Position numbers and translations under genes: made by a program. A stretch of 64,000 nucleotides of DNA, taken from positions 29,140,001 to 29,204,000 of the forward strand of contig NC_047022.1 of assembly GCF_902652985.1 (NCBI RefSeq), in the 5' to 3' direction. The notes beneath the pieces are model-generated. The model ran no database searches. It saw only the letters and a list, made by a program, of their open reading frames with translations, and had not been told where the DNA came from. Positions 15,109 to 44,850 of this stretch are shown one piece after another. Source of the DNA: Pecten maximus. Taxonomy: Eukaryota. How positions within the stretch are numbered: position 1 is the stretch's first letter; the number at the start of each line of letters is the position of its first letter.

Positions 15109-16173
15109 GGGAAATTCCTGCTAATCTGATTTAGTAATGTGACCTATACTCTATACTTTTACACTATTCCCTCCTTCAAAAAGTCTTCGCCCCCAAAGAC
15201 AACCACAACCCAGGTTCTTTAGCTCCAAGGAAGCCTCTCAATCTCCTGTAGCTTTCACTTGGAGCGGTCAACAGCACCAAATCTGTAATAGGAAGGAGTA
15301 ATGAAAAATACCCTGCCAGTGGCGGGCTTTGAACTAGAACAGATTGGAAAAGCCTCCAAGAAAGTTGTTTTCGGGAAACATTCATCATCAGTTCCACTGC
15401 TGGTCTTTAGTAGTAATGCACTAGCTTCAGCTGGTGCCTCATTTTACTTCAAATTCTTGAAAATTAAAAGAAAACTTTCGAAATTATATCAATATTGAGT
15501 CTTGTTTTTTTCTATCCATAAAATGGAAGTAAATATAGCGAGACACAATGTCACATGAGCATATATCATTGCACCAGACTGATTGAACAGAGTAAAAATT
15601 AATCCAGAAATCAAGTGTAAAGGAAGGTACTTTGAGATATATTAAGCTGAATATGCAAATATACCTAAAGTGAGATTAACACATTACAGGCTGGTGAAAC
15701 TGATGGAACTACAGAAACTAGATTATCTTCTGTGTCCATCTCTTAACTATAAACATAGGCATACATTATCTCACTGGCTAGTTCCTTTTGCAAAATAACT
15801 TTGGAGGATTATACAGGTCACAATGCACATATATTAATGTACAAGTTACACAACATAATACTAACACATTAAAATAAAACATTGGAAAACGGTAACACTA
15901 TCATCAGTACAACATGCTATATCAGGAGTGGAAGTGCAACTGATGACCACTGATCACAATCAGTATAATTAAGGCATGCATTTTTAGCTGACGTTTTCCA
16001 CTCATTTAGTATTTGACATACTATTATTTAATGCATATATTGAAACTGAATAGGCTGGAATGTTTTCTTAGTACATGTATTGAGTTTATAAAATTCTTCT
16101 TTTGTTTTTCAGTTATTGCATGGATCAAGAGTTGGAAAAGAACCAGAACACATAGTAGCTAAGAAATGGTAAG

Positions 16174-19100
16174 ATGGAAGCAGGTGATCTTGTCAAAGTT
16201 AAGGCAGAACCAATTAATTTAGATACTGATGAACCTGATTATTTACCAAATAAAGATGAAAACATTGGGATACCTACAGAAAAAGAAGCAATACAGCAAC
16301 AAACAGATGAGGAGGTGCTGCCAGTTCAGTCTTTAACTCCTCCTTACTATACACAGAGCCACATTGTAGGAGGAAAGTGGGAAAAGCCAAAAGAAAAGAA
16401 ACAGTACAACTGTAAAACATGCAAGTTTAAGTTTACCAGTAAAGCATGGCTTATCAAACATGAAAAGATGCACGAGAGAATGGAGAACAAAGCTAAACTT
16501 TATAAATGTGAGATTTGTAGGAAGGAATTTTCTCAGAAGATAATCCATCATGACCATATGGCAGCCCATGCAGGACGAAGACCCTATGTATGTGATAGAT
16601 GTGGCATGGACTTCACATGGTACAGGGCATTTTACAGACACCAACAAAGTCACAAGACAGGTGGCAAGGGATTCTCCTGCCATCTATGTCGCAGAACATT
16701 CAACAGTAATTGGAACCTTTCTAGACATCTCAAAGTAATACATTTGTCAAAACAAACTTTCAGATGTGATATTTGTGAAGAACTGTTCGAAAAGAAAAAC
16801 TTGTACCAAATTCATATGAAAGCTCATCATAGAGAAGAAAAAAAGAAAAGGAAAATCATTGGTATCGTGAATGAAACGGTGAAGCAAAAGCATTTAAAAT
16901 TTTCAAAAGCCGTTCGCGCTATGATGCAGTCACAGTCTCAGAATAATAGTAAGCAAGCAAATAACCAAGGAAGTCTCGTGTCATTCGGTGATGAGATTGC
17001 AGCCTCCGAACTGATTGAAGAGATCACAGATATCTCGAAAGTAGAAGACACAAATGACACAAAATGTAATTCCTATGACGAAGACAGTAGTGTGCAAGTT
17101 CTACAAAAGTTAAATGAAGCTCCCAAAATAGACGATAACTCTGTTAATAAAACTGATGCCGATTTGGAAGACATCCAAGATCAGGGTATCAAATATAGTA
17201 TTGGAAAAACTAGCAAAAGTACCGCGAAATCGTCAGTGATAAGTAATCTTAAGCTAAGTCAACAACCATACGCATGTGGTATATGTGGGAAACGTGTATT
17301 CAATTTGGATGCTCACATGAGAATTCATAGTGGGGACAAACCATTCAGATGTTGCCTGTGTGATAAAGATTTTGCACAGCGGGAAGCACTAAAAATTCAT
17401 TACAGAAGCCATACAGGTGAGAAACCATTCATCTGCAACACTTGCGGAAAAGGTTTTGCAACCCGTGGCCTTCAGCAGGATCACGTTCGATCTCACAGAG
17501 GCGACAAGCCCTATCAATGTGATGCCTGTGACGCTAGATTTTCTTGGAGGTGTGCTCTAAGCAGACACAAACAACTTCATTCTACCGGACCAAAACCCCA
17601 CGCATGTTCTATATGTACTTTTGAATGCTGGAGAAAACATGATCTCACAAAACACGAAAAGACGCATTTGAATGATCGCTATTATAAATGTGATTTCATT
17701 AACTGCACAGCTTTTTTCTCGAACAAGAAACACTTAGTTAAACACAAAAAGGAACATAAGTGTTCTAACATGGACAAGACATCTCTTAACGGCAGAATGA
17801 TCAGGATGAAAACGGCTAAAGGTGCTGATGACACTGACAAATTTGAATCGGATGTTTTTCTCACTACTGACATAGTTGATATAAAACAGGAACCAACTGA
17901 GGAGTTAGTGGATGATGATCTCCATAATATGTCAGTCCCAAGTACAGCTAGTATGTATATAACCTCAAACGAAGGCCAAATGGAGACACTGGTGACTCAC
18001 AGAACAGATCCTGATTCCGGCAAGCTTCGCTATACCAAAGGAAAACGATTGCATTTGGATCGTGATTTACAACTTTTGTTAAACAAGAAACTTAATGAGA
18101 AGAAAACTGTCAAATCTCGAAACACCAAAGATGGGTTGTCTGGCAAAAATTTAAAATCAAAACTTGAAGGTGGAATGCATAATGAACCTACCAGGCAATC
18201 GTCAAAAAATCTTGGATTCGAAGGCTTAAAAAGGAAAAGCCAAGTGAACATTTCAATGGATAACGTGGTTGAAAATGATGGTAATCCTATGAAAGGCTTT
18301 GATAAATTTATGTCGAGCAGCAACATGGTCTGTTGTGAAGTTTGTGGCAAATCTTTGAACATCTCCTACTACCACATCCACGTGCGGAAACACATGGAAG
18401 AGATGGCTCATACATGTGAGATATGTAACAAGTCATTTTCGCGGAAAACTGACCTAGTGGTACACTCTAGGGTCCATACTAATATCAGACCGTTTAAATG
18501 CACTATTTGTCCAAAAGCTTTCAAAGTGAAAAGCTTATTAGAGGATCATATCAGATCGCACGATGGTATAAAACCGTATGTCTGTAGTCTATGTGATGCC
18601 TCGTTTGCATGGAGATGTGCACTTCATCGTCACGTTAAGACACATTCCATAAATAAACCATTCCAGTGTGATGTTTGCGGGAAAGATTTCCGTCGTCGGA
18701 GGGATTGGGTTTGTCACATGGAAAAGAAAACCTGTAAATTTGTGAAGTCAATCATCTATAAATGTAACGACTGTCAAGCTGTTTTTGCAAATCTGGAAAC
18801 ATTAGTGTATCACAACGAGAAATATCACAAAGAAACATCACTGACGACAGCGGATAAACCTCCTGAATCCCAGACGATCTTAAACTCTTCATCTGATAAA
18901 TTGAAAGAATTTTCATCACCAGAACCATATAGTGATGATATCGTGGATGAAGATACCTTACAAGAAGAAAACGACACAATTGATGAATTAAATGAATCAA
19001 TCCAAGCAAGAGAAAATGTAGCAACCTTCCAACAAACAAATACCAGAAAAGATGTAAACCCACCCAGTGATTCCGTCTTGTTACCGAACAACAAATATGA

Positions 19101-20022
19101 TGAAACTTATTCTGAAGAGGCAAGTGGAAATAAAACGGATATAACGCTGAGTGAAAACTTAAACAGTTTCATAAAGAAAGAAAGTATCGATAGCGATTCA
19201 ATGTTTATCTCGAGTGTTGTGAATTCTGCCGACTTAATGGAAGATTCCCGCAGTCCTTCCAACACACACAATGATACTCAAACCATTAGTCAACAAGATC
19301 CAGATCACGTTGATAAAACAACGCTTCCCTCGTCAAACTTTAGCGAGTTTTCTTTTACCACTTGGACTGGTGAGGATTTGCAAATTAAGCAGTCCAATGT
19401 GAATGGAGCTTCTAATGCTGGTGCTGTTGAAGACAAACTCAAATGCAAAATATGCAGTAGAAGCTTCGTCTCTTCCATAGGTCTAAAGGTTCACTTGCGA
19501 ATCCATTCGAAAGACGCGATGGACATATACGCTCTCCACTTTCGTCCAGATGAGATGATGACAAAATCAAAGAGGGAAAAGGAAGCTAGGAACTTAAGAT
19601 TCAAGTGCAAACTTTGTGATAAGACTTTTCCGTTCGCTAGTGGTTTGAGGATCCATATGATGGCACATTCTGGCAAACTTCCCTACAACTGTAAAACATG
19701 TGGGAAGAGATTTCCTTATTTAGAATCTGTGAAATCCCACATGCGTGTACATACGGGTGAGCGACCTTTCACCTGTGATGTATGTGGAAAATCTTTTGCA
19801 TATCGGCACAACCATGACGATCATTATAGGACACATACTGGTGACAAACCTTACAAATGTGACCGTTGTGATTCCGCATTTACGTGGAAGAGTGCTTTAC
19901 ACAGGCACCACAAGACACATAGTTTGGAGAGCTTGGAAGTGTGTACCATATGCAAGGCCAAATTCAAGAACGGAGGACAACTTGTGCGACATATGAACAG
20001 GTTTCACAGCAGTCTTGTATGA
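16174..20022 (+). CDS. C2H2 zinc-finger protein, 1282 aa, about 23 fingers in four clusters, single coding exon
   Basis: Long intact ORF with CxxC...HxxxH fingers and HTGEKP-type linkers. Splice acceptor TTTTTCAG at 16112 starts the exon. In-frame stops upstream fix the ATG. Confidence 0.97.
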   Translation: MEAGDLVKVKAEPINLDTDEPDYLPNKDENIGIPTEKEAIQQQTDEEVLPVQSLTPPYYTQSHIVGGKWEKPKEKKQYNCKTCKFKFTSKAWLIKHEKMHERMENKAKLYKCEICRKEFSQKIIHHDHMAAHAGRRPYVCDRCGMDFTWYRAFYRHQQSHKTGGKGFSCHLCRRTFNSNWNLSRHLKVIHLSKQTFRCDICEELFEKKNLYQIHMKAHHREEKKKRKIIGIVNETVKQKHLKFSKAVRAMMQSQSQNNSKQANNQGSLVSFGDEIAASELIEEITDISKVEDTNDTKCNSYDEDSSVQVLQKLNEAPKIDDNSVNKTDADLEDIQDQGIKYSIGKTSKSTAKSSVISNLKLSQQPYACGICGKRVFNLDAHMRIHSGDKPFRCCLCDKDFAQREALKIHYRSHTGEKPFICNTCGKGFATRGLQQDHVRSHRGDKPYQCDACDARFSWRCALSRHKQLHSTGPKPHACSICTFECWRKHDLTKHEKTHLNDRYYKCDFINCTAFFSNKKHLVKHKKEHKCSNMDKTSLNGRMIRMKTAKGADDTDKFESDVFLTTDIVDIKQEPTEELVDDDLHNMSVPSTASMYITSNEGQMETLVTHRTDPDSGKLRYTKGKRLHLDRDLQLLLNKKLNEKKTVKSRNTKDGLSGKNLKSKLEGGMHNEPTRQSSKNLGFEGLKRKSQVNISMDNVVENDGNPMKGFDKFMSSSNMVCCEVCGKSLNISYYHIHVRKHMEEMAHTCEICNKSFSRKTDLVVHSRVHTNIRPFKCTICPKAFKVKSLLEDHIRSHDGIKPYVCSLCDASFAWRCALHRHVKTHSINKPFQCDVCGKDFRRRRDWVCHMEKKTCKFVKSIIYKCNDCQAVFANLETLVYHNEKYHKETSLTTADKPPESQTILNSSSDKLKEFSSPEPYSDDIVDEDTLQEENDTIDELNESIQARENVATFQQTNTRKDVNPPSDSVLLPNNKYDETYSEEASGNKTDITLSENLNSFIKKESIDSDSMFISSVVNSADLMEDSRSPSNTHNDTQTISQQDPDHVDKTTLPSSNFSEFSFTTWTGEDLQIKQSNVNGASNAGAVEDKLKCKICSRSFVSSIGLKVHLRIHSKDAMDIYALHFRPDEMMTKSKREKEARNLRFKCKLCDKTFPFASGLRIHMMAHSGKLPYNCKTCGKRFPYLESVKSHMRVHTGERPFTCDVCGKSFAYRHNHDDHYRTHTGDKPYKCDRCDSAFTWKSALHRHHKTHSLESLEVCTICKAKFKNGGQLVRHMNRFHSSLV

Positions 20023-25473: not shown

Positions 25474-28400
25474 ATGAGGATGCATGTAAGCAAATATTTT
25501 ATTGATATTCTAAAACATAATTGATCAAACTGGAATATACACTTACATATGGATTTGAATGTTAAGTATAGACCTGTGCAACATAAAACATTAAAAACGG
25601 AAATATTCTATCAATTAATTATCTGGCCACGGGGGATTTAATTTTACAATATTCACGATTATTATAAACATAGAGTGAAAAGTAAATAGTGAAACTTATA
25701 TTGATATGTACACAGAAATACATTTAAGTTTATATTGCTGAATTTTAACAAGGCTATGCCGTGCGAAATAGTTCGACAGAAACCACCGCGAAATGAAATC
25801 CTCATAAAATTTAGCATGTATACAGGGAGTGAAATGCACTTTAAAATGCATCCCTTATGTACTTGTCACCTATAAAACACCTTTTCAATATGACTTAAAT
25901 CAATACCAAACCGATATTATCCTCACTTGAACACTTTCTCTCTTAGAGAAACTACTTGCTGTTGTATTTCTATTTAAGTCAATTATTGATAGTCAACATA
26001 TTCTGCTATACAGTCGAAAGTATATAGTTTCCCCTTATAACATTAAATGTATTTTTATGATATTATGGACAGGTCTTTGCGTGTTATTTCCTCTCCGTGT
26101 TCATCTCGACATGTCGATGTGGTTACAGTAAGTACGCATCTGCTTAAAGGTTATAAAATTAACTTCTACAATATAACAAACATAACTGGGATCTATATAT
26201 TGTATTTTTTATATATTTAACACAATGTATATATAATGATTACATCATCCAGTGACATCTCATTGTGTGTTTGTATTGTTTTCATTAAGAACTTTGGCAC
26301 CAAAGACTATATAAGCCCCATATTATGTCTATATTCCATCACATTTGACTAGTTAAATTACGAGATGCCATCTATATACACAAATACCTACCAAATTGCT
26401 ATTTTACTCATTTTGCGTGACATTTATGATTGTTCATAGAATCACACAAGATATCTTGTGTATAGGACAGCACCAATGGGGAGGATTAAATATGAATCTA
26501 CATTACGTAATAAAGATTAAATATGAATCTACATTACGTAATAAAGATTAATAAGCGGAGTTTTGTTACAGGGGATGCATTGGTAGTTTCTATTCCTACT
26601 TTTTATGACGACAGTTTAAACGCTAGCACGACGATTGACACCTTGGAAAGTATCCGTAACGTTTTGTCTTCCGACCTCCAACATGCGGATGAAAACCTTG
26701 AGGAATCTTTGGTCAGGTTCTTCTACAATATGTTTTTATGGTGAAGTATAACTCAACATAAGAAGTTACAGCATACAAAAAACAACGCTTAAATTTCATG
26801 TCAACAACACCAAACGGCTCACTCTAAGAAATAACAATTTACAAAATGTATGTTAAAGTTTAATGCTGCCTTTGACCATGCATGCATTTGAAAATAATGA
26901 AATTCTTCTTTTGCAATTCCATAAAATGCTTTGTTTTGTTCGACATATATTTTTAGATATTGCTATTTTAAAATCATCAAATATTAATCTGGTCAATACA
27001 ACCTTCATTTATTTATGAAACTGTTATTTATAATTGTTTGTGTTTAGTTCGAGACTGGCAGTATGATCGATAACATTATCATCAAGTACGGCCAGACCCA
27101 GCTCGACAATGCTAGCATGTTGGATATAGCGGTAGGTAAGTAAAACACGTGTTTGGAAGGATAACAGAACATGCGGAAATACGTGCTCCCTGTTACATAC
27201 TAGTATTCAACGCTGGAGAAGACTTAATTCTGATAAGAACAAAGAAAAGAGGTAAAATATGTTAGACAAGAAAATAGAAACTTTTGACGAGAATTGCAAA
27301 TTTTAACGGTTGTTGTACATATATGTATAATTATATTCTACAAAAAAAGTTGTTTACTTATTGTAAAACATTCGAATGAAAAAATGTTTTGAGGATGAAA
27401 GTCATCCTGTGTTGGGGACATTTTACTGTTCGGTGAGTTGAGCTCAAGGTCCCAATTATGCATACATTGCTTTGCTGAGAGATATGATTGTTTTAATTAA
27501 TCACGACAATTGGCCGGAATATAGTGGATATATATTGTACTAACCTATTCCACTCACTTAGTCTTTGATTTAAGGAAAATGATAGTTCTAAAATAATATA
27601 TAAGTAATAATATACTATGCAAATTGGTTTATAAATGAACCTTTGTTCGTTGATATTCTAACACATATCCAAGCTTTAAGTAATGCTAGAGATTGTTACA
27701 TGATTCTGTAATTCCTTACTATCGTGATAGGTCGAAAAACCGTTTTCAATGTGAACACGTGCTTTTCTTTAAAAATTAATTTGAGACAGAACTGGTAAAG
27801 TTGGTAGAAGTCATGCTTGATGTCATCAGCTTCCTAACGTGCACAGCCAACAACCCTACCGACTGTTCCATCGACAGCTCTAAGGTAAAAACAATTACAC
27901 CACCGACAACCCTACTGGTCGTTCCATTGACAGCTCTAAGGTAAAACAATTACACCACCAACAACCCAACTGGTCGTTCCATCGACATCTCTAAAGTAAA
28001 AACAATTACACCGCCAACAACACTTTTAATTGTTCCATTGACAACACTTTGGTAAGAACACTTACATTTCTAGCGTGTCAAATATTTACAGCTGGGAAAA
28101 TACAATTCAATTCAACTGAATTAAATTTTATTAGCACCTTTAAGTAATCAAAAATGTAAATACATGTATCAATACTATGCGTATTAAATACTAAATCGAA
28201 CTGAATGCAGTCCTTTCTTTCTCAGCTGTAATGACCACTTAATGAATAAACAGTGTATAAAAGTACTATCTTCGTATTTGACGACAACATGATATTTGTA
28301 AGATTTGTTGAATCACTTAGAGTTTAGGTTAATGATATCCGCATTTTCAAGATAGACACGTATCCATCCCATCGGGACAGTAGATACTTGGACAGAAAGT

Positions 28401-31400
28401 CTTTAAGAGCTGTCATTTAAAATGTCTAGTCTTGATAAAGTGCCAATAAAGTCATTTATCATGGCCATCATGTAGGGCAAGAACTGAAAGCCGACAAATA
28501 ACAAATTTCAGTGTTGTTATTTGGAATGTTTGCACCCTGGGAGCTTTGACGTATAAAACGAAAATATGATGTTGTGTTATAGTGTCAAAACAAAAAAGGC
28601 AAAAAACTGACCACAGCATATATAATATACATGTCATATACGAGCATGATAAAACAAATATGTTAACATGTTTGGAAGCCAGTCTTTGTTGTCGAATGTA
28701 TGAGATAAACATCCTATATATACTATATCTACTGAAGTTGAAGAAAAGGTTTCATCTAGAATTACGAAATAAGAATTGAAAAAATGTCAATCAGAAAAAA
28801 TGAATATTCTACTTATTCCGTTTTCGTTTACAATAATCCAAATGCTTTTCTTACCAAAAATCAAAACGATTTCTTATACATGCATTCCACACACTGGAAG
28901 ATGTTTTGTTTTTGTAGTCAATGGGGTATGTGAACACCACCGAGGAGCGACTTCTACAGTTCATGACGATCGTAATTAACAGTCAGTACTCACAGAATGA
29001 GATAGAGATTAGCGAAGGCAATATTGTGATAGCAACAATCAAGAGTAAAGGGGATGTATTGGACAAGATGGTAACTAAATATAGTAGCACGCTGGACATC
29101 CCTTACGTCAGACCGGACGCTGTCCAGTACAACGACCAGGAACTATTACTTTATGTACGTGTTATTGACGAATGTAATATAGGGTTTGTATCAGGTGTTA
29201 GGTGTGTACGTCTAGATTACATAGTGATGATTCATTAAATCTGTATGTGGCTGCGTTTCGAAAGTTGATGAAATGAACTCTTTAATAGTATGCATCGCAA
29301 TTATGTGAAATTATGTTTAAAGTATGTATTTTTTTTATGGTATAACGTTTACGTCCATCCGTCTGTCCGCCCTGTTAAAGTTCGAGTAAAAGCTTCTACA
29401 ATAATCTACAAATCATGTGTTATTATACTAATATTTGGAGATTTTAATTTTTCGGGAACCATGAATTTAATTTCTGGTAATTATTTCTATCCTTTTTTAA
29501 TATTTCTTATCCGTTTTGGATTTTGATTGCCAAGACCATGAATACTTTATATATATATATATATATAAATCTTTGGAGAGGGTCAGAAGGGCGTATTATG
29601 TATCCATTTCCGGTGTTCTCGTTTTTAATGGATAAGAATGTGGTATACTGCTTGTAGAGTCTAAATCCACACCCTTATAAGATACTGCTTTTTGTAAAAT
29701 AAGGATTCGTCATGATACATTTAGAACGCGTGTTGTTATAAGATAAGGTCATTACTTGCTGTATTTACTTATTAATTGACATCATTACAAAGGTATTTCA
29801 CATGAAGACATAATTAACAGAATAAATGTTTGGAATAAAGACTCATTATGTCCTTACTGATACATGTAAATTATTTGTACATTGTTATAGGTTCTTTCCT
29901 ACAACATCAATAAGTATACATACGTAGACAACCAACGCATGATCAACACGGGAACAACTCGTACGGTAATACGGGACAAAGATGGCGATTTCATTGACCT
30001 TTACAGTGGGGATGATCGACTTGAGGTACTGGATTGTATCCCTTTAAATTGTAAAATACTGTTTCAGTTTAACAGACACTTACCTTAAAATGCCAATTCA
30101 ATTAAGATATGTTGTTTATGTTTACGATTTGTTCTTAAATATCATATTAAGATGAAAACTAGCATAGTCTGTATTTTAATCGATAGGTATCGAAATGGAT
30201 TTGGTATAAACACATCCAGTACACAAACGAAGCATTAGCATATGCAAAATATACTGATATATTTTTCCATTTTCTAAAGTAATAGCGTAGATTTTGTACT
30301 TGTGCAATATCAGTTCATTATATTCAATATGTAAACGGTGTAAATGTATAGTACACAATAAGCAAAATAGCATATCACTTTGTAACCATACATAGTTTCA
30401 TGAAGTGTTCGTTATGACCAAAGTGCTGATGGCGTCTGGGCATCATATTGTTTTTTTTTTTTTTTTTTTTTGTGGATTCATGGGATAGAGTTTAAGTTAT
30501 TTGATCACCGTATCAGCAAACTATATCAATTCATCGTTACATGAAGAGTTTGGTAATGGAATTCACAAATCACTGTTTTCTTATGTTGTACCGGTAGATG
30601 GTGGTCGATGCAAACAACGTAATGAACGATCCGAGCTTTTGGGAGAACATAACTAACGTGAACAATAACAACGAATTCTTTCTGAATGCCTCCTTTCAAA
30701 ACAATGTGGACGGGGCGTTGATGAATGTTCGCATTAAGAGCATCATGCCGTGCGTGATGAAAGGATACGATGCAGATCTGAATGCCAGCATCGACAGCCA
30801 GACACCAGTGGTAGACCTACTGATTGACGGGGGCAGGGACCTCACCATCTTCGATAAACCTGCAAATTTGAAGATTGAGTATCGAGGGCAAGATCTATCG
30901 ATTACCTTCCTTCCACCTGACAGTAATCTGGATTCTATGATCTCACTCGACATGTATTTTCAATGCGAAGGTAATCCTTGTAATATTGTCAATTTTAAAT
31001 GCTACATTCATGCATGAGAGTGTTCGTCTTCAGATTTTTTAAAGCGATATAAGGGTGACTGAAACTGTGCCAATGGGTGTGTATGTGCATGGAGGTGGTA
31101 TCAAAAGTTATTTCACTTTGAAAATATTAACATAAGTAAATTATTCACTCTGTGTATCGAAATATCCCCTAAATTGTTATAGCAAATGCCACATTGGGAA
31201 GACATATAAGGGCTAACATATCAACTGACATCAAAGTTATATGCAATATCAATATGGAGCGTTAATAAGCTATATCATTAAAATATGGTATAATTTGTTC
31301 CAGTTTGTCTCGAGAGGGCGCAGATGTCGTTCATCATTGTGAAATCTGAACTCACCGAACAGGACGACTTCGACATAGCAATTAATTTTGTCAAAAAGAT

Positions 31401-34400
31401 GATCAGTGTTGTGAATAATACCCAGTTTTCTCTTCATACATTTGAAACGGTATTCCAAACAGTGTTTTCGTTTGGAGATGGCGTAACATCAGAGTCTCAA
31501 GTAAACAGTTATATTGGAGTGATTTCCACACCTTCCTCGAGTATATCAATTACCACAAGTATCTTGGGGACCACAACTACCGAAAGTGCGACAACCTCCA
31601 CAATCGACCCAAATGCAACGCTGGTCTTGGACCCTGTACGTATCGACACCGCACTGTACAATATGACGTCATACTTATCAACAAACGCTGACTGGTCAAA
31701 ACAGCAGATAGTTCTAGTGATAACAGACGGTCAGTTTGGTCTGAATGATAGTATGATTTACCCTGCACTTAACGGACTTCGCAGCATGAACGTCACCATA
31801 ATGGCTGCGGGTTACGGGTTAAAATCAAGAGATGATATCAAATCATTGGTTAACTTACCTACCAATTGGTACATATTCTGGCTCACCAGGGATCCGACAG
31901 CTGATATTGAAACAAGTGATTTAGAAGAGTTTATGAGCTCCTTCTGTTACGGTAAATATCCTAAATTGACATGTGCTTTTTGTTTAAACTTCATTTGATT
32001 TACATACCAAGTTCAATGGCATATCACTGTTTAACTTAGATCGCTTCCTGCTCTTGTATGTTAAATATAAAACGCATAGCTATACACTGGTAAATGTTTT
32101 TTTTCTTGAATTTGTCTGTACTAAAATATGTTTAAAGCTTTGCAAATACAACACATAGTATAACGACATGTACACGCATACAGTTATTTCAAATTCCATT
32201 AATGACATTGTAATTGCTGACAAATTAAATTTGCTTAAATAGCATTTCAAGACAAACAAATCGAATAGTAAGTTAAGAAACTAAAAGACAATTTGAGACA
32301 TTGTCAATACTATGATACAATTACAGACATTTCACGCATAATATTACTCGCTCTTCCCTTATTGCGTTGCTTAAAGTTTGCTTATATTGATACAAATGTA
32401 TATGTATCATACCCCGATGGAAACAGATGTAAGTAACTATATAAGATAAGGTAATGATATTTCTTCTGATTCGATATTTTGCAGGTTCTTATGGAAATCT
32501 GGCTTTTAATGCAGTACGATTTGGCCGTGTGTCAGCTCTTATGCTCAACGAGACGACCAATCGGTGGCATATCTCGGAAAACATCAAGGTGACTATTTAC
32601 CGCTATTCCTCTGGGGAGTGACATGATCACTGTAACATTCATGTCTGAATTAAATACGTAATATCGTTTACCCCCCCCCCTCCCCTCAAAAAATATATCA
32701 ATAGATAAATAAATAAATAAATAAATAATAATTAAAAAAAGAAAATCACTTGCTCTTACTCATTAAAATTCTTGATATTTGTAATTTATCCTAATTCCGT
32801 CTTCTGCCATTCTAACACTACTCTATCATGCTTAAACTACACCAAATATCACACATTATTCTAGCTACTTTTTCGTACATGTCTATAGTTATTTCTAGCC
32901 ATGAGCAATTATCTATTTTGTTTCTATCCGACTATCAGGTTGTTTTTTTCTCTTAATGGTATGACAAATCAAAATCTTGAAATCATATTGTATATAACGA
33001 AGAACTATGCCAACACTTAATTAAAACGCTTTGAAATATAGAGTTTTCCTTCGTAAAAGTTATTGGAATAGCTCTTACATTTATGAACAAAACAGTTTAT
33101 ATATGTCGCTATTATCTATTTTTTCTGTTTCAGATGAGTGATATATCCATGGCTTCCTCCACAGTGACGTTTAAAAGTAACTTTCTTGGCACGTTTGGTT
33201 CGAATGTGTTTGTAATCCCACCGGATGTGATAAACTTTGATACGCTTTTCGTTGACTTTGCCAGTAAGCTAGAGGACACGCCGTATGTTCTGGCAGTTAA
33301 TGTGGGATGCCTCAGTCTGATGGTTGTATTAATGATTTTCCTTAGATATTTCGACAGCAAGGATTTGTTAAAGGTCAGTATGGTTAGAATTCTGGATAGG
33401 TTCTGGTTTTGTAGCGTATATGTCAGCTGCTCATTTTGCATTTAAAACATTATTACTTTAAAAGAGTAATTCATTTTCGTCTGATCATTAACCCCAAAAT
33501 TATCCAGTGGTGTTTCTCATTTGCCTCTTTTGCTGAGCAGAAGACTGTACTGAATGGGTACAAATCTGAGTGTCGTTCAACAGAAGTTTATCTAAATAAG
33601 CGTCTTCGGCTGATACTAATGTATTACACACGCTTTTATTGCATTTTTGCCAGTGAAATATAGAGATTTATGAAACTAATAAAACTCATATTTTCACTGC
33701 AGCGATGAGCAGTGAAAATAAAAGAATTTGCAGCGAAAATATAAGTTTTGCAGTGAAAATATAAGTTTTCCGTTTTTGACCAGTCAGAGCGGACCTTTGT
33801 AGTCACCTCGTTGAAACTTGCCGATTTTGCCAATCGAAGCGGAGATAAATTGGTTATTTTGCTGTATTTTTGAAATATTCTGACCAGGTTTTGACTAAAT
33901 ACTCACTTGACGTTGGCTATTCATGCACAGATTCTCCTAAAACAGCAGAAAACGCTTAAATTGCGATGATCAGTCCTTTCAAAATGGTGCCGCCGTCAAG
34001 TTGACGTGGAGTAACGTCACACAGAGATGACGTCATTACTGATTCCCGCACTTTTTGATGCTATCGATTTTTCGATGTTTTTAATTTTTACTTTTAAGTT
34101 TATGAAATGCAATAAAAAGAAAATTGAATGGTTTCCCGTTTAATATAACATATATTTCACGAGTATGACAGAATATCGATATTTTCACGAGTGCGAAGCA
34201 TGACAAGAATATCGATATTCTGTCATACTCGTGAAATATATCTTATATTAAACGGGAAGCCATTCAATATCCTCTATATAAAACGAATTTTAAAGTTATT
34301 TCATTGTTATCCATATTTGAGTAGTAAATCTCACTGCGAATGTGCTTTTTTTAGAGACGGAATGAACGGAAAAAACAGATTTTGAATTTGGATGGACTTG

Positions 34401-37400
34401 CGTGTTGCACCCAACAAGTCTTTATACAAACCACTACACCCCATAAGTCGACCTTGGTCGTATGTCTGCCCATAACAACAAATCTGCTACGACCGCTATA
34501 TAAGTGTATTATATTTATACATATAAATTATACATTACACAAGATATTGATTTCGAATTAAACACAAGATTACGGATAAAATTGAAATGGGAGATTCTTT
34601 GGTTTATTCATAGGGTGCTACAATAAGCGGTTAGCGGTAAATTACACAACAGCTTATTTATTTGTCTCAACGCCTGTAAAAGCAACACTAATGATATTTT
34701 GCAATAACACTTGCGAAGAACATCTATCCTTTTACAATGTTTCGAGATATTAAAGCTGGTGAAGGCCACAGGAATTTTCTAAATATGACATCATGATCTC
34801 TTTTGAAAATAATCGATTTCCTTATGCGAAATGATGTCAGATGTGTTTGATGCTTGTTGGTATGCCAAGTACATCGTAGTCACCAATCTCATTTGCGACT
34901 GTGATTTAATCCGACATCGGCCTATATTCCTATGTTGTTTTTAATAATAGGTGTTGTCGTCGAAGCATGAAACGCTTACTCCGCTGGAGCACATTGTCTT
35001 TTTCTCCTCTTTCAGGAATTTCCACGAAAATGAGTATTTTTCTTTATATTTTGACCTCGTTTAATCGATTTTGGTTTCGGTATTATGTCAGTATTCCTCG
35101 TCTTTTTTTTTACAGTGGGAATACCTTCCTTTAAAGAACAATCCGCGCCAGGCTCGTTACTCGTACTATTTGTCTTTTTACACGGGGTTTTGGTCCAGTA
35201 GTCGCCTTTCGTCTACGGCATTTATCATACTCAAAGGCTCCAAAGGGATAACAGGGGCCAGAGCAGTCAAGGACGGGAAACGCAAGGTTAACACTAATAG
35301 TTATCTACTGAGCCGAATTGTTCAAAAGGTGACTAGCACAATCGCTTGATTAGTGAAAAAAAATCATTTTCCTTACTTCAAAACCTTTGTGTGCATCTTC
35401 CTTAAAAAACAGTGATTGACAAGTGTTATTTTTGTCAAGTTAGCATTACTAGAAACGATTTTATCAGGATTTCAAAAGCGTTGCTAAACCTTGATTAACC
35501 TTATCACCTTTTGAACAACCGGCCCTGAATTTTAGTGCTTCAGTACTTTTTATGTCTATGTGCCATTATGACAAACGTAATGTTGCCTATTCCACAAAGT
35601 TTTTATCTATATATAGATGTTTGAACGCTGGACGCTTGGCAACTTTTTGTTGACCACCGACCGAGAGCTAGGGCAACTATCGGAGATTAAAGTATGGCAT
35701 GATGAACAAGGGGACTCTCCCAGCTGGTACCTAGAAAAGGTGCTCGTCTATGATCAATTCAACGATGAAAAGTATGTTATTTCTATGTCAACTACTGTTT
35801 ACTACTTACTCTGAATCAAGCAAATACTCTTTTGCTAATTCTGTGGTATATGATATATTTGACACTAATTTCATTCTCAATTTATTCTCAAAGTTTACAT
35901 ATACATTGTATTGCGAATTAGTTATATTCTGACATTATATAGAGGTACGCGTGGAGTTTCAACTGATCTTGTTGTCCTAGGTACGCGTTCCTGTGTGGAC
36001 AATGGCTAGCCCCGGATAGGGACGACCGTAAAACAAGAAGAACGCTCTATGCTGCTAAGGCAGAACTGAAGGACGGCAGTATTTTGTTTGGAAGTAACAC
36101 AAGATTCAACCTGTTCGACGACTATCTTTGGCTTTCACTGCTTAGCAGGCCTTCAGCTAGCCGTTTTACAAGAGTTCAACGCTGTGTATGTGTGTTTTCC
36201 ATGCTGTTTTTATCCATGCTAGCGAATGCGATGTGGTACAGAACATCACAAGGAGTTCAGACTTATGGGATTCACCTTGGACCGTTCAGTCTCACCTACA
36301 AGAATATTTACGTTGGTTGTATGGCAAGTTTGGTGACATTTATTCCAGGATTTCTTATTGCGTGGATATTTAGGAACCGCAAAGTAAAAGTCGGCAAATC
36401 CTTTATGGAACAGAATACGAAGGAAGTGATGAATGAAGGTTTCTTACCTTGGTGGTTTATCTTCATTGGATATACCATAGCAATGATGTGTATGTCTTCT
36501 GGTGCAACCTTCACCTTTTTCTATAGTATTGAATGGGGTCGAGATACCACGCTCGAATGGCTAGGGTCTTTCACTTTCGGAACAATGCAGGGAATCATGT
36601 TCTTAGATCCACTCAAGGTTTGTAATATCTCATCAAAAGCAGCCTTAATAATGTTAGTATGTGTTATAACTTAACTAGTCATACTTTACACAGGCAGAAG
36701 TGCTGTCAACATTTCAAATCATCGCTAATCCAAAATCACCGTCGACAAATTTTAAGAAATTTTAAGTACGGATTGTTATGAATCATACATCAAATTAAGA
36801 ATAAGAAACTCATTTAATGTTAATCCAGAGGCAATTGAATAATGAGTAAAATCAGAAATTTGACAGAATAATGACTACATTTGAAGTTTTAAATTCCAGC
36901 CTTCAGGGCGGGGAAAGATGATTTTGTCTATAACAAAAAAAAAAGAGCATTGTGTGTGCTGAACATCACCTTGTATACATATGCACATATACATGCACAA
37001 ACATGTCAAACATCAGGCAAATGAGCCAATCAATATGACACGGTTTGATGATCTTGCGAGGTTGCTACATTTGGTTAAATGACCAAATATCTTATCCTCT
37101 CTGATTAGATATGTTAAGGTCTAAATAAGCTAGTTCATAATCAATTAATCTTCATTGTACTAATCATATTATCTAGAGGATAACAACTATTTTACCCCAA
37201 TATATTGTACATGTATATAGCGGTGACCTTTGTAGGTGGTATTTCTTACCTTGATGGTAGCATTTTTCTGCAAGAAATATGCCAAGAAAGATCTGGAATG
37301 TATGGCGCCGGTACTTGTGGAGAACGATGCATCTGAAGACAGAATTGAACAAGATGACGATTTCGTTGACGTTGACGGTATCTTTCTTATCTGTATCAGG

Positions 37401-40400
37401 CTTTCAACTTCCAATGCATTGTGCTTTGTGCCTTCTGGCTATTACCATCTTTAAAATTACTTTCCACGGATTTTAGATGTTTAAATGCAAAATATGTAGG
37501 TGGTGTATTGCAACCGATCAAACACTATTGTTTTAATTTGAACTAAAATTTCTAAAATAATCCAAAAGCTTAGAGTTACTAACTCACGTATATATACCCG
37601 TATTTACATCCGTCCTGGATAACAAAAATCCTCTTACCCTTTATCAGTGGTATACAAAATGATATCAGTTATCTACACTATTGATTTGCAATTTATTTCA
37701 TAGAAAGACCTCGATTGTAAATCAAAATATTAAATTGTTCACAGAAAATATCTTTGAAGACAAGTCAAACACAACGAATTACGACAAGAGGGAGAGGGCG
37801 CGGTTGTACAAGTTAGTACAGTTAGATAGAAAACTGTTGTTGTCCGCTCGCGCCCTTCTCATTCAGGCTGCATACATAACTATTCTAGCGGTAATATGTG
37901 CCCACAACTCTGTTTGGACATCTTATCTTCAGAACAAGTCTTTGGAGAAACGTCTGACTCCGACTTATCGGGTAAGTGTGCTGGTGAATTGCATGCTAAC
38001 CTGAACTGTACTTCCTACGTCATGGTGTGCGCAATTGATTGGTATTACTTTGTAGTTTTTTGTCATTCCTGCTTCGTAAGTAAATACATTGTATTCACTT
38101 AGACGAATACCAGTATTACTTGTTAAATGTCAAACAGGGTAATAAATAAAAGTGTTCATTAGATAATTTTTTAGTTTGATTAACTTTGTTATATAATAGT
38201 TTTTGTTGAAAAATCCCAATGAAACAATTACTATATTACAAATGTCAATAAAACAAATGAAAACAATTGTAATATCAAATAGGAAAACAGTTATATATTT
38301 TGCTGAAGGTTTTTTTACGCGGTTCAATATAAAGTTTACAATACTAACTATAATAATATGTCAAGGCTGTTAAATTGCGTTTGTATCACAGATCAATTCG
38401 ACAGACGACATATGGGCGTGGCTTCGTGGACGATTTGCTGACGCATTGTATCCAAAACTGTTTTACAATGGTGATGTAAGGCTGAATGAATCCCGATATT
38501 ACATGTCCGATGACGTCAGTTACCGCATGGGTTTGGCTAGGATTCGACAAATGCGTGTTAAAGGTTGGTGTCCTCATCATCAACAAAAACTGCAATGCTC
38601 CGAAATGTTTGAATTTATGATCACCACATGTATCAACTCATCATTTTCTTAATGATTTACTGAATAGAGGTGTGGGGAAATTTCGCCGATATGGCGATTA
38701 GGTGTCTAAATCATTTTCTGTGTAACATAAATAATTTTATGAACATCTATGAATATACAAAACTTTGATGTTAATATACTTATAACAAACAGTTTTACCA
38801 TTTGATAGTAAAATATTTTCTGAAATTAACTTAAAATCAGTAAAAACAGATTTCAAAACACCGTTTTTCCTAATTATCTGATTTAGTCCATAAAATGTTG
38901 CTAGGCCCCCTCATACACCTCATGATATTGTGACGTCAAAATGTGTTTCGCCATATAGATAAGGAGCCGTCTCTTTAGTAGGAATTCAAAGAATTGCATC
39001 CTCAGTTTTATATCGCACTAATAGATCTATCTAGCGTCATTTTCAAAGTAATTATTTAGATGAAGATGAACGACAATCGGAGTAATAAATAAGTATTTTA
39101 TAGGAATTAGACCAGGTGGATTTTAAAGACCCCTTTGGCCATTTTAATCGTGTGAATAGTTTCACCGGGAATATACATATATTTCATGTTTAAAAAAAAG
39201 TATGACCTGATATCCACGGAGATATGGAACTAGTTTAATTGTGAGGTTTATGCGTCATTTTCAATACTTTAACATTATGTTTTGCACTTTGTATTTTTCT
39301 GACTTTTCTGCTGGATTTCCACACTTTGTTCTCAAGCATCACCAACAAAATCTGTATATATTAATGTGTTTTAATTATAATTCGGCATTCATTAAATCCA
39401 TGTTTGTATACATTGGTATTCATTGGTGATCTTCTATACAATTCTTTAGTTTGTTTGTTTGTGTTGATATATACAAGGTGTAATGTTTATTGAAATATGA
39501 TACATGTAGTTATGTGATATTTCGATATGTTATATATCTTTTTAATAGTTCTCCTTTTTAATAAATCGCTGAAACTGATGATTTCTTTTACAAATATTTA
39601 TTTTAATGTTCTTTGCACAATTTGTATAAAACATATCAGGTTATATAACGTTAAAACGACCATAGTATTGTACATTTACAGGGAAGTGCGACATTCCGTC
39701 ACTGCTACAGGGTCTCATATATACATGTCCTCCAGAGTATTCGGCTGCGAGCATGGAAAAGACTCACTTTTGTGAAGGTAACTATAACAAAATACTCTGT
39801 ATTAAAGTACATGAAGGGTAGGATAAGGTCATCGTCGGTAGCCTACGTTCCACTGTACTGTCGATTATCGAAGAGACACGTAATGATACTACTGCGGGCT
39901 ACCGAGGATGAGATAAGGTCTCGTATATCAGTTATTCGTCCCATAATGGTGGTGGTTCAGTCAAAATGTCGTAAGAATTATCAAATATTATTTCATAACT
40001 TTAAAAGTTTTGAAACATTCTGGTTAAAATACAACACTATAGCATATTATGCATTACGCGTTACATTCAAGGTTGTAAAAGGGTTTCTACAATATAGGCA
40101 TTATATGATTAAAAACTAATATTAATTACATGTGGTATATTGTTATAACACATAATGATTGATTGTTCTGGATAGAATCACTAGAAACTGCAACACTAGA
40201 AATCAATACGCTGTGCATTCATTATTGTCGGTAAACTAGTCCATATACACAACTTTCAGTATTGGTATTTGCGATATCAATATTTGGATTGCACACAAAG
40301 TAACACGTTTTAATGCTCTCTCTACACCAATGGATTTTTGTTTAGAAGGTAATTTACATGAACAAATTGACCTAACAAACAACTACCTATGAGTAATGTA

Positions 40401-43400
40401 TCTTGCCGGTTAGTTTGGCCTGTAAGGTCGTGGGGTTCAATGATGTCAGTGTAAATATTGTATCATTACGTTGCAGTCTTTTGTTTTAATTCATCTGTAT
40501 GTAGGGAGTGGCGTCTTCTCTAATATGAGTGAAGTGATATTCAACCGAGTCTAAACTATGTTGGGTTGTAATATTATTAGTCCCCTGCCGACGTACAAGC
40601 TCCTTTATATTTTTGACAACCTACTTATTTTCACAAGAGAATATATCTGCTGGTGCAATGTTTATAAAGGGAAGATAAAAGAAATACACATTTACCGATC
40701 AAATACAGGGACTTGTATTAAATAGGTATTGGGCAGCACAACCGAGTGGCTAATGACACAATAATGTACATGTGCAAGTACCTGTCATTGTAGGTAGGAC
40801 TTGAACTCTGTAATACTCTTATCACTTGAATTGCCATTAATGAAGTTATATGCTTAATTTAATATAAACAATATAACACATTATTCTAAGACAATGGTGG
40901 AAATCAGTGTAAATACCTCCAGCTGCTTGATACTAAATAATTAAATGTTCATGGGCAGGCGTGGGCAAAACAATTAACGATTCGTCGGTTAAGATGTATT
41001 TTGACTACGTTGGTACTAATACTTCCTTAATTATACCAGAACCAGGGATAACGAAAAATTCCAGTGCTCCTCTGCAAGTTACTTTCAATTATTTACCATT
41101 AACTAAATTTTAATCTTATGTAACTATCCATTCAGGTTGGACGGACTATAATCCAAAGAAATGCAACGGCAGTGAATGGACGTTTAAAGGTGAGGATGAG
41201 ATCGATTCCATGTCCATATTCGGTGACCATGATATCTATGGCGGAGGAGGATATGTGAAGTTACTCGACCAATCAGTGAAGGAGATAAGAAACGATTTGT
41301 ACGCCATGCAAGCCTACGGTTGGATAGACCGTTTTACTCGACTTGTTGTTATAGAATTCGTTGTATACAACCCAGATTCCAAACTGTTTTCATTACCAAC
41401 GTTAATCATAGAAATGCCTCAAACTGGCGGATATTATCCGACAGTTAGAATAAAGACGGCACGGTTGTACCCATATATAGACTCGTTTGACTACCTTGTT
41501 CTCGGATTACAACTTCTCTTCCTGGTTGTCACGTTTTGTCGCTTCTTACATTTGATTTATACGACATGGCAGATTGGTCGGCGCTGTTTCTCGCAAATCA
41601 GTCAGTGGGTGTACCTCATCAGCATCATGACGTCAGTAGCAGCCATTGTGTTCTACATTGTACGCATAGACAGGACAATCTATACTATAGAAGAATTATT
41701 TAATTCAAGCGGTGAGTAAAGATAAATGTATCATTTACAACATGTCATCGTTCTGTCGATATCTATGAATCAGATCACTTTTCATACATATAGGATCTTA
41801 ATGACTTTTTATTTCATAACGATTTTTGTAAGTAGTCTTCGATTAAAAAAATGCGTTCCTTAGAAAGCAAACGGTAAAATATGATATTAAATGAAAGTAA
41901 CGGTAATATATTTTTAATGCATTATTGAGAAAACTTACATTTTGACAGTTATAAAGTCAAAATGCTGAAAACAAAATCAAGCCTAAGTAGCCATTTTGTT
42001 GTGCCATTTTTAATATATGGCCTAACGCCATTTTCTATATCATATTTACATTTACACTGCAGCCCCACTAATAACTTTACCATAACTTCCAAATCTTTAT
42101 TATGACGTCATTATTATAGTGCCGTCATAATTGTAACGTCGGCGATAACGAAAGATGGCTGTTGAAAAGGCTGTTCCGGCTTTGACGATAATAATTTGTT
42201 CATTCATCGTAGAACCAAAATTCCTGGATATAGACTTTAAAAATCGTTGTCAAATGTAAATATAAGCATTAAACTGCTTTCATTTGGAAGTTATGGGCTG
42301 ATGAATGCCAACTGGACAAAGGCAAATTCAACATGAAACGCTAGCGCGCTTCATTGAATTTGCCTTTGTCCAGTTGGCATTCATCAGCCCATAACTTCCA
42401 AATGAAAGCAGTTCAATGCTTTAATAACATCACTTCACAAATTGACTAGCACAGCCAATGGAAAACGCTCCAGACATTTGCAAAATATTACAAATACCTG
42501 GAAAATAGGCCGATTATGTGGTACAATAGGATACGGCAGATGTCGTAGAAGCTGAGTTACACTCTTAAACCCTGTATGCTATACATTAATACCCGACGTG
42601 GGAAATCTTAAATCAGAGTTTAATATGAAACTTCCGAAGTTCAATATCATCGCCACTAAAAGTCGTTGGTTTAAAATACCGTTGAATTTCAAGTATATTC
42701 AATGTCTCTAAAGTTTAATAATTCATAAATGCAAATGTTTAGATTAGCTTGCCTGTTGCTGTTGTGGAAAATTGATTTCCACATACATAAATTACCTATA
42801 CCGCATCCAAGGTGATAACAAAAGTTGATTCTAGGAATCAGACCAGGTGATTTTTACAGACCCCACATGGATATTTTGTCCGAATCCAATGAACATTAAA
42901 TCAAAGCGATATTTGATATTTTCGCCAAGTCGTATACAAGACCATGTCGTTTCGAATATACGCAACTCTTATGAAATGCATCAACTCATTTTGCAGGCGA
43001 GTTCGTGACCTTTGATATAGTGGATGCCATGGACACTGCATATAAGGTGTGTGTCAGTGCGGAGTTGTTTGTGGCAGTGCTGGACTTATTGCGGCCTCTT
43101 ACATTCAATCACAACATCTATTTAATGAGGACATCTGTTTCTGTGTGCGCCAAAGATCTCCTGTCCTTTGGATTGTGTATTATGGTCCCGATGGTTGGTT
43201 TTGCAATTCTCTGCTTCGTTTGTGTAGGACCGTATCAAATGGAATTTAGGAACTTTGTAGCCGCCTTTATTACATTGTTTCGGACGTTATTAGCAATGGT
43301 CAAAATTAAGGACACTTTTGGGGAGCGTGACATCGGTATCAGCTTTGTCTTTTCAGTTTTTCTATTTGTTATGACCATACTTATGGTGAACTTTTGTATC

Positions 43401-44850
43401 GGTATCTTAAACAACGCGTTCAGTCATGTAAAAAACAACAAACCGATGCATGCTGATGTCGAAGTATACGACATGGATCTCCACAAACACTTCTGGCGCA
43501 AGATAAATGATATCCTAAAAATATTTGAACGAAAACCGAGAAAAAACAATTATAAGGAGGAAGGTGAGTAAAAGGGTGATGTTTAATGTTCTCCGAATTT
43601 CTCGGAAAATGTTATTGGTGTTATCTAGTTTTGATGACAAGGAAATCATGTTGGAAATCGATGATTGCTATTTCATGATATCTTGGATCATTAAATTTTA
43701 ATCATTAATTATATATACAGGTTTTATGTCAACGTTTGAAGACAAATAAAGTGTTACATTCCATCAGTTTCAAAAACACCGAAAGAGATAACATCCGAAA
43801 ACGTTAGATTTCATCCTGGTGATGTAAACAGAAAACATATATTACAAAGAAGTTCTTTTATAAAAATTAAATTATTGTCTTTATTTTTTAGACTTCGCTG
43901 GAGTACTTGGTTTGTCAATGACTCTAGACAATCAGGTTAGTACGTATAGCTTTGTAGTCAATCTATCTCTTCATATTGTATTAATATAACATTGAAATAA
44001 TAACTCTGTGTATATAAATGTATTAAGAAAAGTAAGAGCACTCGGTGATTTTGTAAAATTATTGTAAAATCATTCCTGTTGTTGAAGATTAAGTTTCTTA
44101 ACGAAGAGTTAATAAAACATATTTCTACCGTTCTAAACAGATCTTCAAACTTGTGAGTCATTTGGAGCGTGCCTACCACAACGAAAACAACTTTAAAACG
44201 AAATACAATGCTGTGAGTATTTTACATATATTGGAATGTGTGTTATTATCATGATATTGATGCGATTAATTTTGAAATGATCTGAAACTAAACTGATTTT
44301 CTTCACATTTTGAAATTGATCAATAATTTAAGAAAAGATGATTCTGTGTATCTGGCTTGACATTCTGTATAAAACCCTATCATAACATTAAAAGCGTTAT
44401 TACTCTTTATTTGCTTTAAATACAAACAGAAATCAGTCCCGTGTCAGCATACAACCACACACTCAAAATTGATTTCGATAACAGGATTATTGATACTTCA
44501 AAACAGAAGAAATGACAAATCTTGCGGTTAGATAATGGGTCTAAAATTGAATATTTGATATTTTGACTTTGGCTTATCCGAAACGGGCGTTTTGTTAACG
44601 TTGGTATATTAATTAATTTAGAATATATAACCTTCCTGGAAAAAAAATAGTCTTTTTCTAAATATTGCAGATGGTGAAGAACTTACCCAAAAAATACCAT
44701 AGGAAAACAGGTCCTTTTGGATACGAGAACACATTCTACCAGTCGCCATTCGACGACATCCAAGAGGAAGGTTACGTCGATGGACAGTCAGAAGATTATA
44801 ATTCCGGGGAAGCCTTTGAAACTTCGTTTGATTATATCGTGGATAGTTAG
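25474..44850 (+). CDS. Polycystin-1 family (PKD1-like/PKD1L2-like) 11-TM receptor-channel subunit, about 1721 aa, 23 coding exons
   Basis: Hand-spliced GT-AG exons, all phase-compatible: 25474-25485, 26073-26127, 26572-26711, 27048-27135, 27790-27884, 28918-29154, 29891-30025, 30598-30970, 31304-31951, 32485-32588, 33134-33373, 35116-35286, 35617-35771, 35981-36617, 37236-37377, 37745-37971, 38392-38563, 39682-39777, 41136-41711, 42997-43563, 43892-43935, 44141-44212, 44671-44850 (5166 nt). Signal peptide MRMHVFACYFLSVFISTCRC, PLAT domain, SRFTRVQR motif, TOP motifs RIRQMRV and YGGGGY, channel helices. The first two and last three exons are less certain. Confidence 0.88.
27846..28060 (+). repeat. 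~56-bp minisatellite, about 4 copies, spanning an exon end and 5' splice site
   Basis: Unit CCAACAACCCTACCGACTGTTCCATCGACAGCTCTAAG|GTAAAAACAATTACACCA. Confidence 0.9.
31304..31951 (+). CDS. VWA-domain exon of the PKD1-like gene (symmetric phase 1-1, 648 nt)
   Basis: C...QMSFIIVKSE...DFDIAINFVKKMI...TQFSLHTF...TALYNM...QIVLVITDG...LNGLRSMNVTIMAAGYG...C follows the VWA pattern. Confidence 0.8.
33134..33373 (+). CDS. PKD1-like exon: end of GPS, stalk and TM1
   Basis: NFLGTFGSNVFVIPPDVINFDTLF...TPYVLAVNVGCLSLMVVLMIFLRYFDSKD. Confidence 0.9.
33659..34279. mobile_element. Non-autonomous hairpin-ended element (Crypton-like) in a PKD1-like intron
   Basis: Termini ATATAGAG...CTCTATAT. ~60-bp-arm hairpin at 34123-34268 with GCGAAGC in the loop. 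Shorter hairpin TATTTTCACTGC...GCAGTGAAAATA near the left end. Confidence 0.6.
35116..35771 (+). CDS. PKD1-like PLAT-domain exons (35116-35286, 35617-35771)
   Basis: YYLSFYTG...IILKGSKG...LGQLSEIKVWHDEQGDSPSWYLEKVLVYD. Confidence 0.92.
35311..35524. mobile_element. Harbinger-type MITE with CTG TSD in the PLAT intron
   Basis: CTG|AGCCGAATTGTTCAAAAGGTGA ... TCACCTTTTGAACAACCGGCC|CTG. TIR is related to that of the 6809-8186 element. Confidence 0.75.
35981..36617 (+). CDS. PKD1-like exon: PLAT end and TM2-TM5
   Basis: FLCGQWLA...DDYLWLSLLSRPSASRFTRVQR...NAMWY...LPWWF...FYSIEWG...DPLK. Confidence 0.95.
41136..41711 (+). CDS. PKD1-like exon: TOP (polycystin) domain and S2-S3
   Basis: YGGGGYVKLL...GWIDRFTRLVVIEFVVYNPDSKLFS. 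Confidence 0.95.
42264..42421. repeat. Near-perfect inverted repeat with ~67-bp arms, probably the end of a hairpin-type transposon
   Basis: AAGCATTAAACTGCTTTCATTTGGAAGTTATGGGCTGATGAATGCCAACTGGACAAAGGCAAATTCAA and its reverse complement. Extra CATAACTTCCAAAT copy at ~42081. Confidence 0.9.
42997..43563 (+). CDS. PKD1-like exon: S4-S6 channel region
   Basis: LLRPLTFNHNI...KDLLSF...FRNFVAAFITLFRTLL...TILMVNFCIGILNNAF. Confidence 0.95.

Follow-up and report, generated by a model that had tools for sequence, protein, structure and literature searches.

GPS cleavage is reported to require the tripeptide HL|T/S, and mutation of the His at position -2 to abolish it (PMC13197933). The two GPS disulfides are described as highly conserved in a review of adhesion GPCRs. 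PKD1L1 and PKDREJ are reported to have no HL[T/S] tripeptide and to undergo no GPS cleavage (PMC9672506); the same source reports that mutation of PC1 Gly3052 lowers stalk signalling, and some uncleavable adhesion GPCRs are reported to stay agonist-dependent. As to the need for GPS cleavage and stalk exposure in PC1/PC2 gating, uncleavable PC1 T3041V is reported to conduct still with gain-of-function PC2, in a constitutively open channel whose gating could therefore not be tested there (PMC6832002). Among spiralians, Platynereis PKD1-1, assigned to a "novel invertebrate family", is reported to be required, together with a PKD2, for hydrodynamic sensing (PMC6294549), and planarian pkd1L-2 is reported to be co-expressed with pkd2L-1 and pkd2-4, its RNAi lowering vibration and flow responses (PMC11448475). 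The terms GPS and GAIN do not occur in the main text of the latter report.

The current study concerns a PKD1-like gene of the scallop Pecten maximus, located in a stretch of 64,000 nucleotides of contig NC_047022.1 that was analysed as a whole (the window). The reading we favor is that this intact gene belongs to an old spiralian clade of polycystin-1-like genes, that its GAIN domain, predicted to retain its fold, is likely not self-cutting, and that its product would be a single-chain protein, probably serving a PKD1/PKD2-type channel as its sensing subunit. Judging from its GPS residues, the window protein very likely does not autoproteolyse, and it likely stays single-chain as well. The receptors of the clade likely work without cutting themselves, although single-chain status may not hold clade-wide, as many relatives have a polybasic site in a neighbouring loop, and many paralogues of this expanded clade may serve other roles. 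Uncleaved GPS variants are already known (PKDREJ, PKD1L1); the clade and its motif are undescribed in the open literature searched (Creative Commons PMC and bioRxiv, with subscription journals outside this scope), which likewise yielded no description of a VWA-in-GAIN insert.

Structure of the scallop gene

The gene lies on the plus strand, where 19 window exons translate exactly to P0001, the database protein labelled Pecten maximus PKD1-like 2 (stalk exon 100% identical), with open reading throughout. A tblastn search with the Argopecten orthologue P0003 revealed three further 5' exons including the likely signal peptide, most of which is encoded by an exon at 26073..26127 (splice sites read) that is absent from the P0001 model; the start-codon exon was not found. 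Six exons within 26572..30970 (26572-26711, 27048-27135, 27790-27884, 28918-29154, 29891-30025, and 30598-30970) encode a short N-terminus, GAIN subdomain A, and the first part of subdomain B, as judged from the CELSR1 GAIN match of model residues 1-548, and they include the Cys200/Cys271 pair, which is specific to bivalves. Neither REJ nor PKD repeats were seen in this short N-terminal ectodomain. The VWA domain (Pfam VWA E 2.9e-8) occupies a single phase 1-1 exon at 31304..31951, spliced in frame, and is followed by two AG/GT-bounded GPS exons. The first, at 32485..32588 (phase 1 to 0), contains Ala506, Leu509, Trp516, and Ile522, while the second, at 33134..33373 (phase 0 to 0), encodes the rest of the GPS (Phe540-Leu541-Gly542 at 33182-33190), the stalk (33188-33238), and TM1. 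The PLAT domain and TM2-TM5 are encoded by three exons at 35116..36617 (Pfam PLAT; alignment to PC1), and nine exons at 37236..44850 encode the TOP/polycystin domain, the six-helix channel-like domain, and the C-tail to the stop (Pfam Polycystin_dom and PKD_channel; spliced contigs). The Pfam matches are to VWA, PLAT, polycystin, and PKD-channel domains, with none to GPS; the PKD1-family features include a PLAT domain after TM1 above the Pfam cut-off, PF20519, and PF08016. A crude hydropathy analysis finds nine membrane segments versus the eleven expected, with homology covering both membrane halves.

The joins 31950>32484 and 32586>33132, both with GT..AG ends, are present in contigs from three of four runs, as are joins of the downstream exons. 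This evidence derives from at most two samples of one study, and the "RNA" run type is a guess with which the intron-skipping joins agree, as they fit spliced RNA; none of the runs listed is recorded as RNA. Since the contigs join both GPS exons directly, no exon was missed between them, and the intron at 32589-33133 contains no GPS-like motif in any plus-strand frame. A missed exon with a canonical GPS in this interval, one of the refuting conditions set in the initial annotation, is rejected on both grounds, and its description of the gene as otherwise intact is upheld by the spliced contigs and the exact 19-exon translation. Selection was gauged from contig variants and from protein identity by region, in place of codon-level dN/dS. 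Coding variants, taken from single low-depth contigs, comprise 13 synonymous versus 6 non-synonymous changes (n=19). Between Pecten and its Ylistrum and Argopecten orthologues, the GPS strands plus stalk are 84-95% identical (stalk alone 89-95%), which equals or exceeds the membrane parts (63-89%) and far exceeds the VWA (56-59%).

The gene has close neighbors of its own kind. The first exons of a tandem paralogue, with a stalk exon 67% identical, the same GPS type, and a VWA, lie at 62347..63558 on the plus strand, and a third paralogue is found ~60 kb beyond it. Membership of a tandem cluster within a large family is what one might expect of a redundant or dying duplicate, whose GPS would simply be decaying. 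Even so, we find this scarcely credible, given the open 19-exon model exact to P0001, the spliced contigs, and the excess of synonymous variants, on which a pseudogene was also rejected; moreover, the GPS itself is the most strongly conserved part, and the same motif recurs across phyla.

Several other features were encountered in the window. A short tandem repeat at 27813-27990 places copies of a coding exon end, together with the adjoining splice donor, in the intron, and repeats of high copy number, where contig depth is very high, lie within introns at 33630-34200 and 42100-42430. Elsewhere, one open frame of 1287 codons, encoding numerous C2H2 zinc fingers, spans 16159-20019 (plus strand), and a tandem unit of ~1745 bases occupies about 8700-12450, with the same short frames at 8739, 10484, and 12229. 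Frames at 53760-57500 (minus strand), with pieces like those of a tyrosine recombinase, a reverse transcriptase, and an SGNH protein, resemble the remnant of a DIRS-type retrotransposon, and we take 2756-4160 (plus strand) to be a non-LTR reverse-transcriptase-like fragment.

The GPS motif and its spread among spiralians

The C-terminal end of the GPS aligns with canonical motifs free of gaps, and the canonical CxCxHL|T corresponds to FxSNFL|G in the window gene (F-K-S-N-F-L|G). In P0001 numbering, C1, C3, and C4 align with Ala506, Phe536, and Ser538, while C2 was assigned by eye, with a one-residue shift, to Ile522. At the cleavage site, Leu541 is retained, whereas His(-2) is replaced by Phe540 and Thr(+1) by Gly542. 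Residues 488-581 do not contain a single Cys. Thus, the His at -2 and the Ser/Thr at +1 of an autoproteolytic GPS are both absent, as are its two to four disulfide-forming cysteines. The initial annotation was correct in its claims that all four cysteines are replaced, that HLT has become FLG, and that both canonical disulfides are lost together with the His/Thr pair. It had also described the Trp and the stalk as kept. This is accurate for the stalk, TFGSNVFVIPPDVINF, which aligns with human PC1 AFGASLFV-PPSHVRF (structure 6A70) and places Gly545 at the position of PC1 Gly3052, and for Trp516 (codon 32565-32567), but Trp516 is the sole GPS Trp retained, the CxxW Trp now being Leu509.

The motif is not a chance feature of the window gene, as 16 of the 20 matches of its stalk exon in the Pecten maximus genome carry the same Cys-free S-x-x-[FL]-G-[TS]-F; three of the others carry HLT and one CxC without HLT. 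A candidate first GPS exon was located for 14 of these 16 loci, and all 14 are without the cysteines, while three of the 16, on small contigs, may be allelic copies. Eleven further stretches yielded three loci with H[LM]T, three with CxC but without HLT, three repeats of earlier loci, and two with nothing. Overall, this genome has 26 resolved polycystin-1-like loci, of which 16 carry the motif, and the GPS intron is placed identically in the window gene and in the HLT-keeping scallop paralogues. The group that keeps CxC without HLT (G000:C1; L018/L035, L027, L028, L031) carries a short insert in place of HLT, for example CRCADETGNLFATTF, and probably represents an independent loss of autoproteolysis.

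A profile built from 13 stalk exons returned 330 matches. Among the best 150, which were classified, 129 are without HxT/S, 12 have it, and 9 are incomplete. Within the 129, C3 is Phe in 111 cases, C4 is Ser in 114, and +1 is Gly in 115; these are upper figures, inflated because the profile was built on the motif itself. Such fixed replacements argue for a fixed new motif, not decay. All 24 named proteins among 30 mostly long matches looked up are spiralian (most short matches fall outside this count, and members beyond Spiralia may exist), and they include bivalves, gastropods, cephalopods, Lingula, Owenia, Dimorphilus, Macrostomum, and Schmidtea, i.e. molluscs, a brachiopod, annelids, and flatworms. 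None of the clade's matches inspected carries PF01825, the Pfam GPS domain, and surveys based upon it therefore miss such proteins. A search of solved structures with the stalk-exon profile found nothing real.

These matches also bear upon whether cleavage has merely moved by one residue, to Gly542|Thr543. SEA domains cleave by a His-free, strain-driven mechanism, and cleavage of that kind would suit a Ser/Thr after the Gly, which is present in 100 of the 129 matches (among the 150 listed). In the other 29, including both Mytilus proteins (GAF), the hydroxyl is missing, and Ser at +2 also occurs in 6 of the 12 HLT-keeping matches. As Thr543 is also predicted by AlphaFold to lie inside a strand, off the turn, shifted cleavage seems very improbable.

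When the relationships of these proteins were examined in a tree of 50 rows, drawn from about 250 stored proteins by choosing long C-terminal parts and including few of the many vertebrate PKD1L3, all 33 HLT-less rows formed one clade, with support of 100/99 (LG+G4) and an SH-aLRT of 99 under a mixture model. The alignment was taken from TM1 onward, and the GPS is therefore outside the tree data. The outgroup includes at most six invertebrate rows besides Stylophora and Branchiostoma and omits PKDREJ, and monophyly was therefore tested against thin sampling; several branches of the tree are long. The molluscan rows track species order. The initial annotation had asked whether the Cys-less motif defines a clade among mollusc proteins; it does define a clade (33/33 rows), and one that is wider than the molluscs.

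The tree further bears upon the order of events. A Dimorphilus plus Macrostomum branch, in which CxC and HLT are gone and C1/C2 mostly retained, forms the sister group (94/93; 95) of the remaining rows, all of them entirely Cys-free. This order suggests that CxC and HLT were lost first and C1/C2 later. Partial states occur elsewhere as well: P0010 has HLT but, of the four cysteines, retains C1 and C3 alone, the ostracod P0026 (Notodromas) has an intact HLS with no GPS cysteines, and four scallop loci retain CxC without HLT. Hence, the Cys and HLT losses are separable, and the "concerted" loss proposed initially is too strong; the changes in these sequences look stepwise instead.

The predicted GAIN fold and the pre-GPS loop

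An AlphaFold model of P0001 residues 1-573 (43 rows, pLDDT 79, pTM 0.76) comprises a helical part, a beta-sandwich, and the VWA at about 273-489. Predicted strands at 533-538 and 542-550 surround a short turn, and the last strand begins at Gly542. The model matches the CELSR1 GAIN domain with Z 14.2 and rmsd 3.6 over 190 aligned residues that span the insert. Foldseek and VIA searches with the whole model listed only VWA-type matches, because the VWA domain fills the list. For the planarian domain, the six best matches to the model (pLDDT 74) are all GAIN domains of adhesion GPCRs, and it superimposes upon GPR110 with Z 14.1 and rmsd 2.9 over 173 residues. Thus, the GAIN fold is predicted to be retained, with a helical subdomain A and a beta-sandwich B ending in the stalk strand, which is the last, buried core strand in both the scallop and planarian models. 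Two new disulfides are likely: Cys200-Cys271, whose cysteines co-occur in 20 of the 43 rows, every one from a bivalve, and Cys274-Cys487, which flank every VWA. Three axonemal doublet-microtubule chains (9fqr_Hn, 9y6s_9f, and 8glv_AE; Z 10.8-11.8) also match the planarian GAIN-like model, among true GAIN domains.

The VWA of the window protein sits in a loop of GAIN-B, between Cys274 and Cys487, its exon also encoding a Ser/Thr-rich loop, and its fold matches integrin I and TRAP domains at Z about 18 (1ido in VIA, Z 18.8, rmsd 2.8, 168 aligned). An intact MIDAS has the form DxSxS..T..D. Compared by eye with P0007 and P0105, orthologues of the third paralogue with an intact DSSGS, the window gene is degenerate and reads VKSEL at DxSxS. 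The seven VWA-bearing rows, from scallops and Pinctada, form a single nested branch of the tree (100/100), leaving 26 of the 33 clade rows outside it. The VWA is thus a later, bivalve-only insert that did not cause the GPS change, a causal role being rejected by this distribution. As an add-on of one bivalve branch, it may serve as a binding or spacing head, in this case without metal binding.

The initial annotation had proposed an activation independent of cleavage and perhaps coupled to the VWA. On such a model, the stalk would act as a tethered agonist, exposed when force on the VWA loosens the disulfide-free GAIN. This would accord with the 89-95% identity of the stalk among orthologues, with Gly545 matching the PC1 glycine at which mutation lowers stalk signalling, and with the agonist dependence reported for some uncleavable adhesion GPCRs. 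However, a stalk that forms a buried core strand in both models would be conserved for that reason alone, and its conservation therefore does not show agonism. Furthermore, position +4 is not fixed but occupied by various small residues (of the 129 matches among the 150 listed, G in 58, S in 37, A in 16, and T in 12), the VWA is missing from most of the clade, and that of the window protein has no intact MIDAS. Consequently, we consider tethered agonism doubtful.

A different possibility arises from the loop in which the VWA resides. Even without autoproteolysis, a host convertase could cut the GAIN loop that immediately precedes the GPS strands to yield a two-chain receptor. Polybasic motifs (RxKRS, RRLL, and KRD) occur in this loop in 17 of 39 VWA-less clade members versus none of 22 canonical controls, although the rows are related and the controls are mostly vertebrate, with one mis-anchored. 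Similarly, [KR]R is present in 25 of 39 such members versus 19 of 108 background windows, whereas the strict furin pattern R-x-[KR]-R is found in 7 of 39 versus 9 of 108. The eight members that bear a VWA all lack polybasic motifs, as do planarian PKD1L-2 and the loop of Owenia. In the window protein, the VWA occupies the loop, leaving only a weak RFGR site at 500-503 that is conserved in close orthologues, but lies within a predicted strand in the AlphaFold model. For these reasons, convertase cleavage of this kind appears quite unlikely for the window protein, although it is a serious alternative for its relatives. The proteins with RxKRS or RRLL where the window gene has its VWA are P0009, P0092-P0094, P0101, P0124, P0125, P0130, and P0139-P0149; RRLL presumably resembles a site-1 protease motif. 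In two ENA proteins, P0177 and P0237, RRKRR/RKRRQ takes the place of the GPS Trp hairpin, where it could provide the GPS itself with a convertase site.

Returning to the uncut, single-chain receptor, several inferences can be made regarding its operation. Firstly, the Gly at the turn would remove both the nucleophile and the strain. Secondly, hydrophobic packing would replace the disulfides, supplemented in bivalves by the new Cys200-Cys271 bond. Thirdly, force or ligand acting upon the ectodomain would be transmitted through a covalently continuous GAIN-stalk-TM1 link, with no free stalk released. The window protein would then be the sensing subunit, with a PKD2-type channel as its presumed partner.

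Comparison with described receptors

The planarian protein provides the functional anchor for the clade. P0161 is Schmidtea PKD1L-2 (AKN21725.1, dd_Smed_v6_13975); it reads FKSNFL|GTF and is a clade member in the tree. Both pkd1L-2 primers published in the supplement of PMC12626421 translate to P0161 peptides, and by eye P0161 also matches a row of a 2015 supplement. The clade is natural, conserved, predicted to be uncleavable, and accompanied by a planarian knockdown phenotype, which makes it a direct test case for the part of cleavage in gating and a natural blueprint for a GAIN domain that stays stable when uncleaved and free of disulfides. We tentatively raise a broader possibility, to which we would give somewhat less than even chances: an unrecognised spiralian-wide class, including a genetically required flow and vibration sensor, may have rebuilt the GAIN domain as a disulfide-free, self-cleavage-proof force link, its pre-GPS loop then becoming a plug-in site for a convertase or a VWA. 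If true, both GPS cleavage and stalk release would be dispensable for polycystin mechanosensing in an intact animal.

As an anchor, planarian PKD1L-2 is limited by being a distant clade member with a different head. It shares with the scallop protein its clade, motif, and predicted GAIN fold, but differs in having a reported RNAi phenotype, in its lack of a VWA, and its Cys-rich repeat head, which we take to be thrombospondin-like. Platynereis PKD1-1 is similarly spiralian and PKD1-like. The uncleavable adhesion GPCRs (ADGRG5/GPR114 and the uncleaved BAI2/BAI3 structures) have a GAIN fold without cleavage, as predicted for the scallop protein; unlike these seven-helix receptors, however, the scallop protein has neither GPS disulfide. 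PKDREJ and PKD1L1 resemble it in the absence of the HL[T/S] tripeptide, although the two PKD1L1 rows fall outside the scallop clade and keep their GPS cysteines. Lastly, the cleaved members of the PKD1 family (PC1, PKD1L2, PKD1L3, and sea urchin REJ3) exhibit the same order of GAIN, stalk, TM1, PLAT, TOP, and channel-like domains. In contrast to these cleaved members, the scallop protein has no GPS cysteines, no His, and no Ser/Thr at +1, and it combines a short ectodomain, free of REJ or PKD repeats, with a VWA inside GAIN-B.
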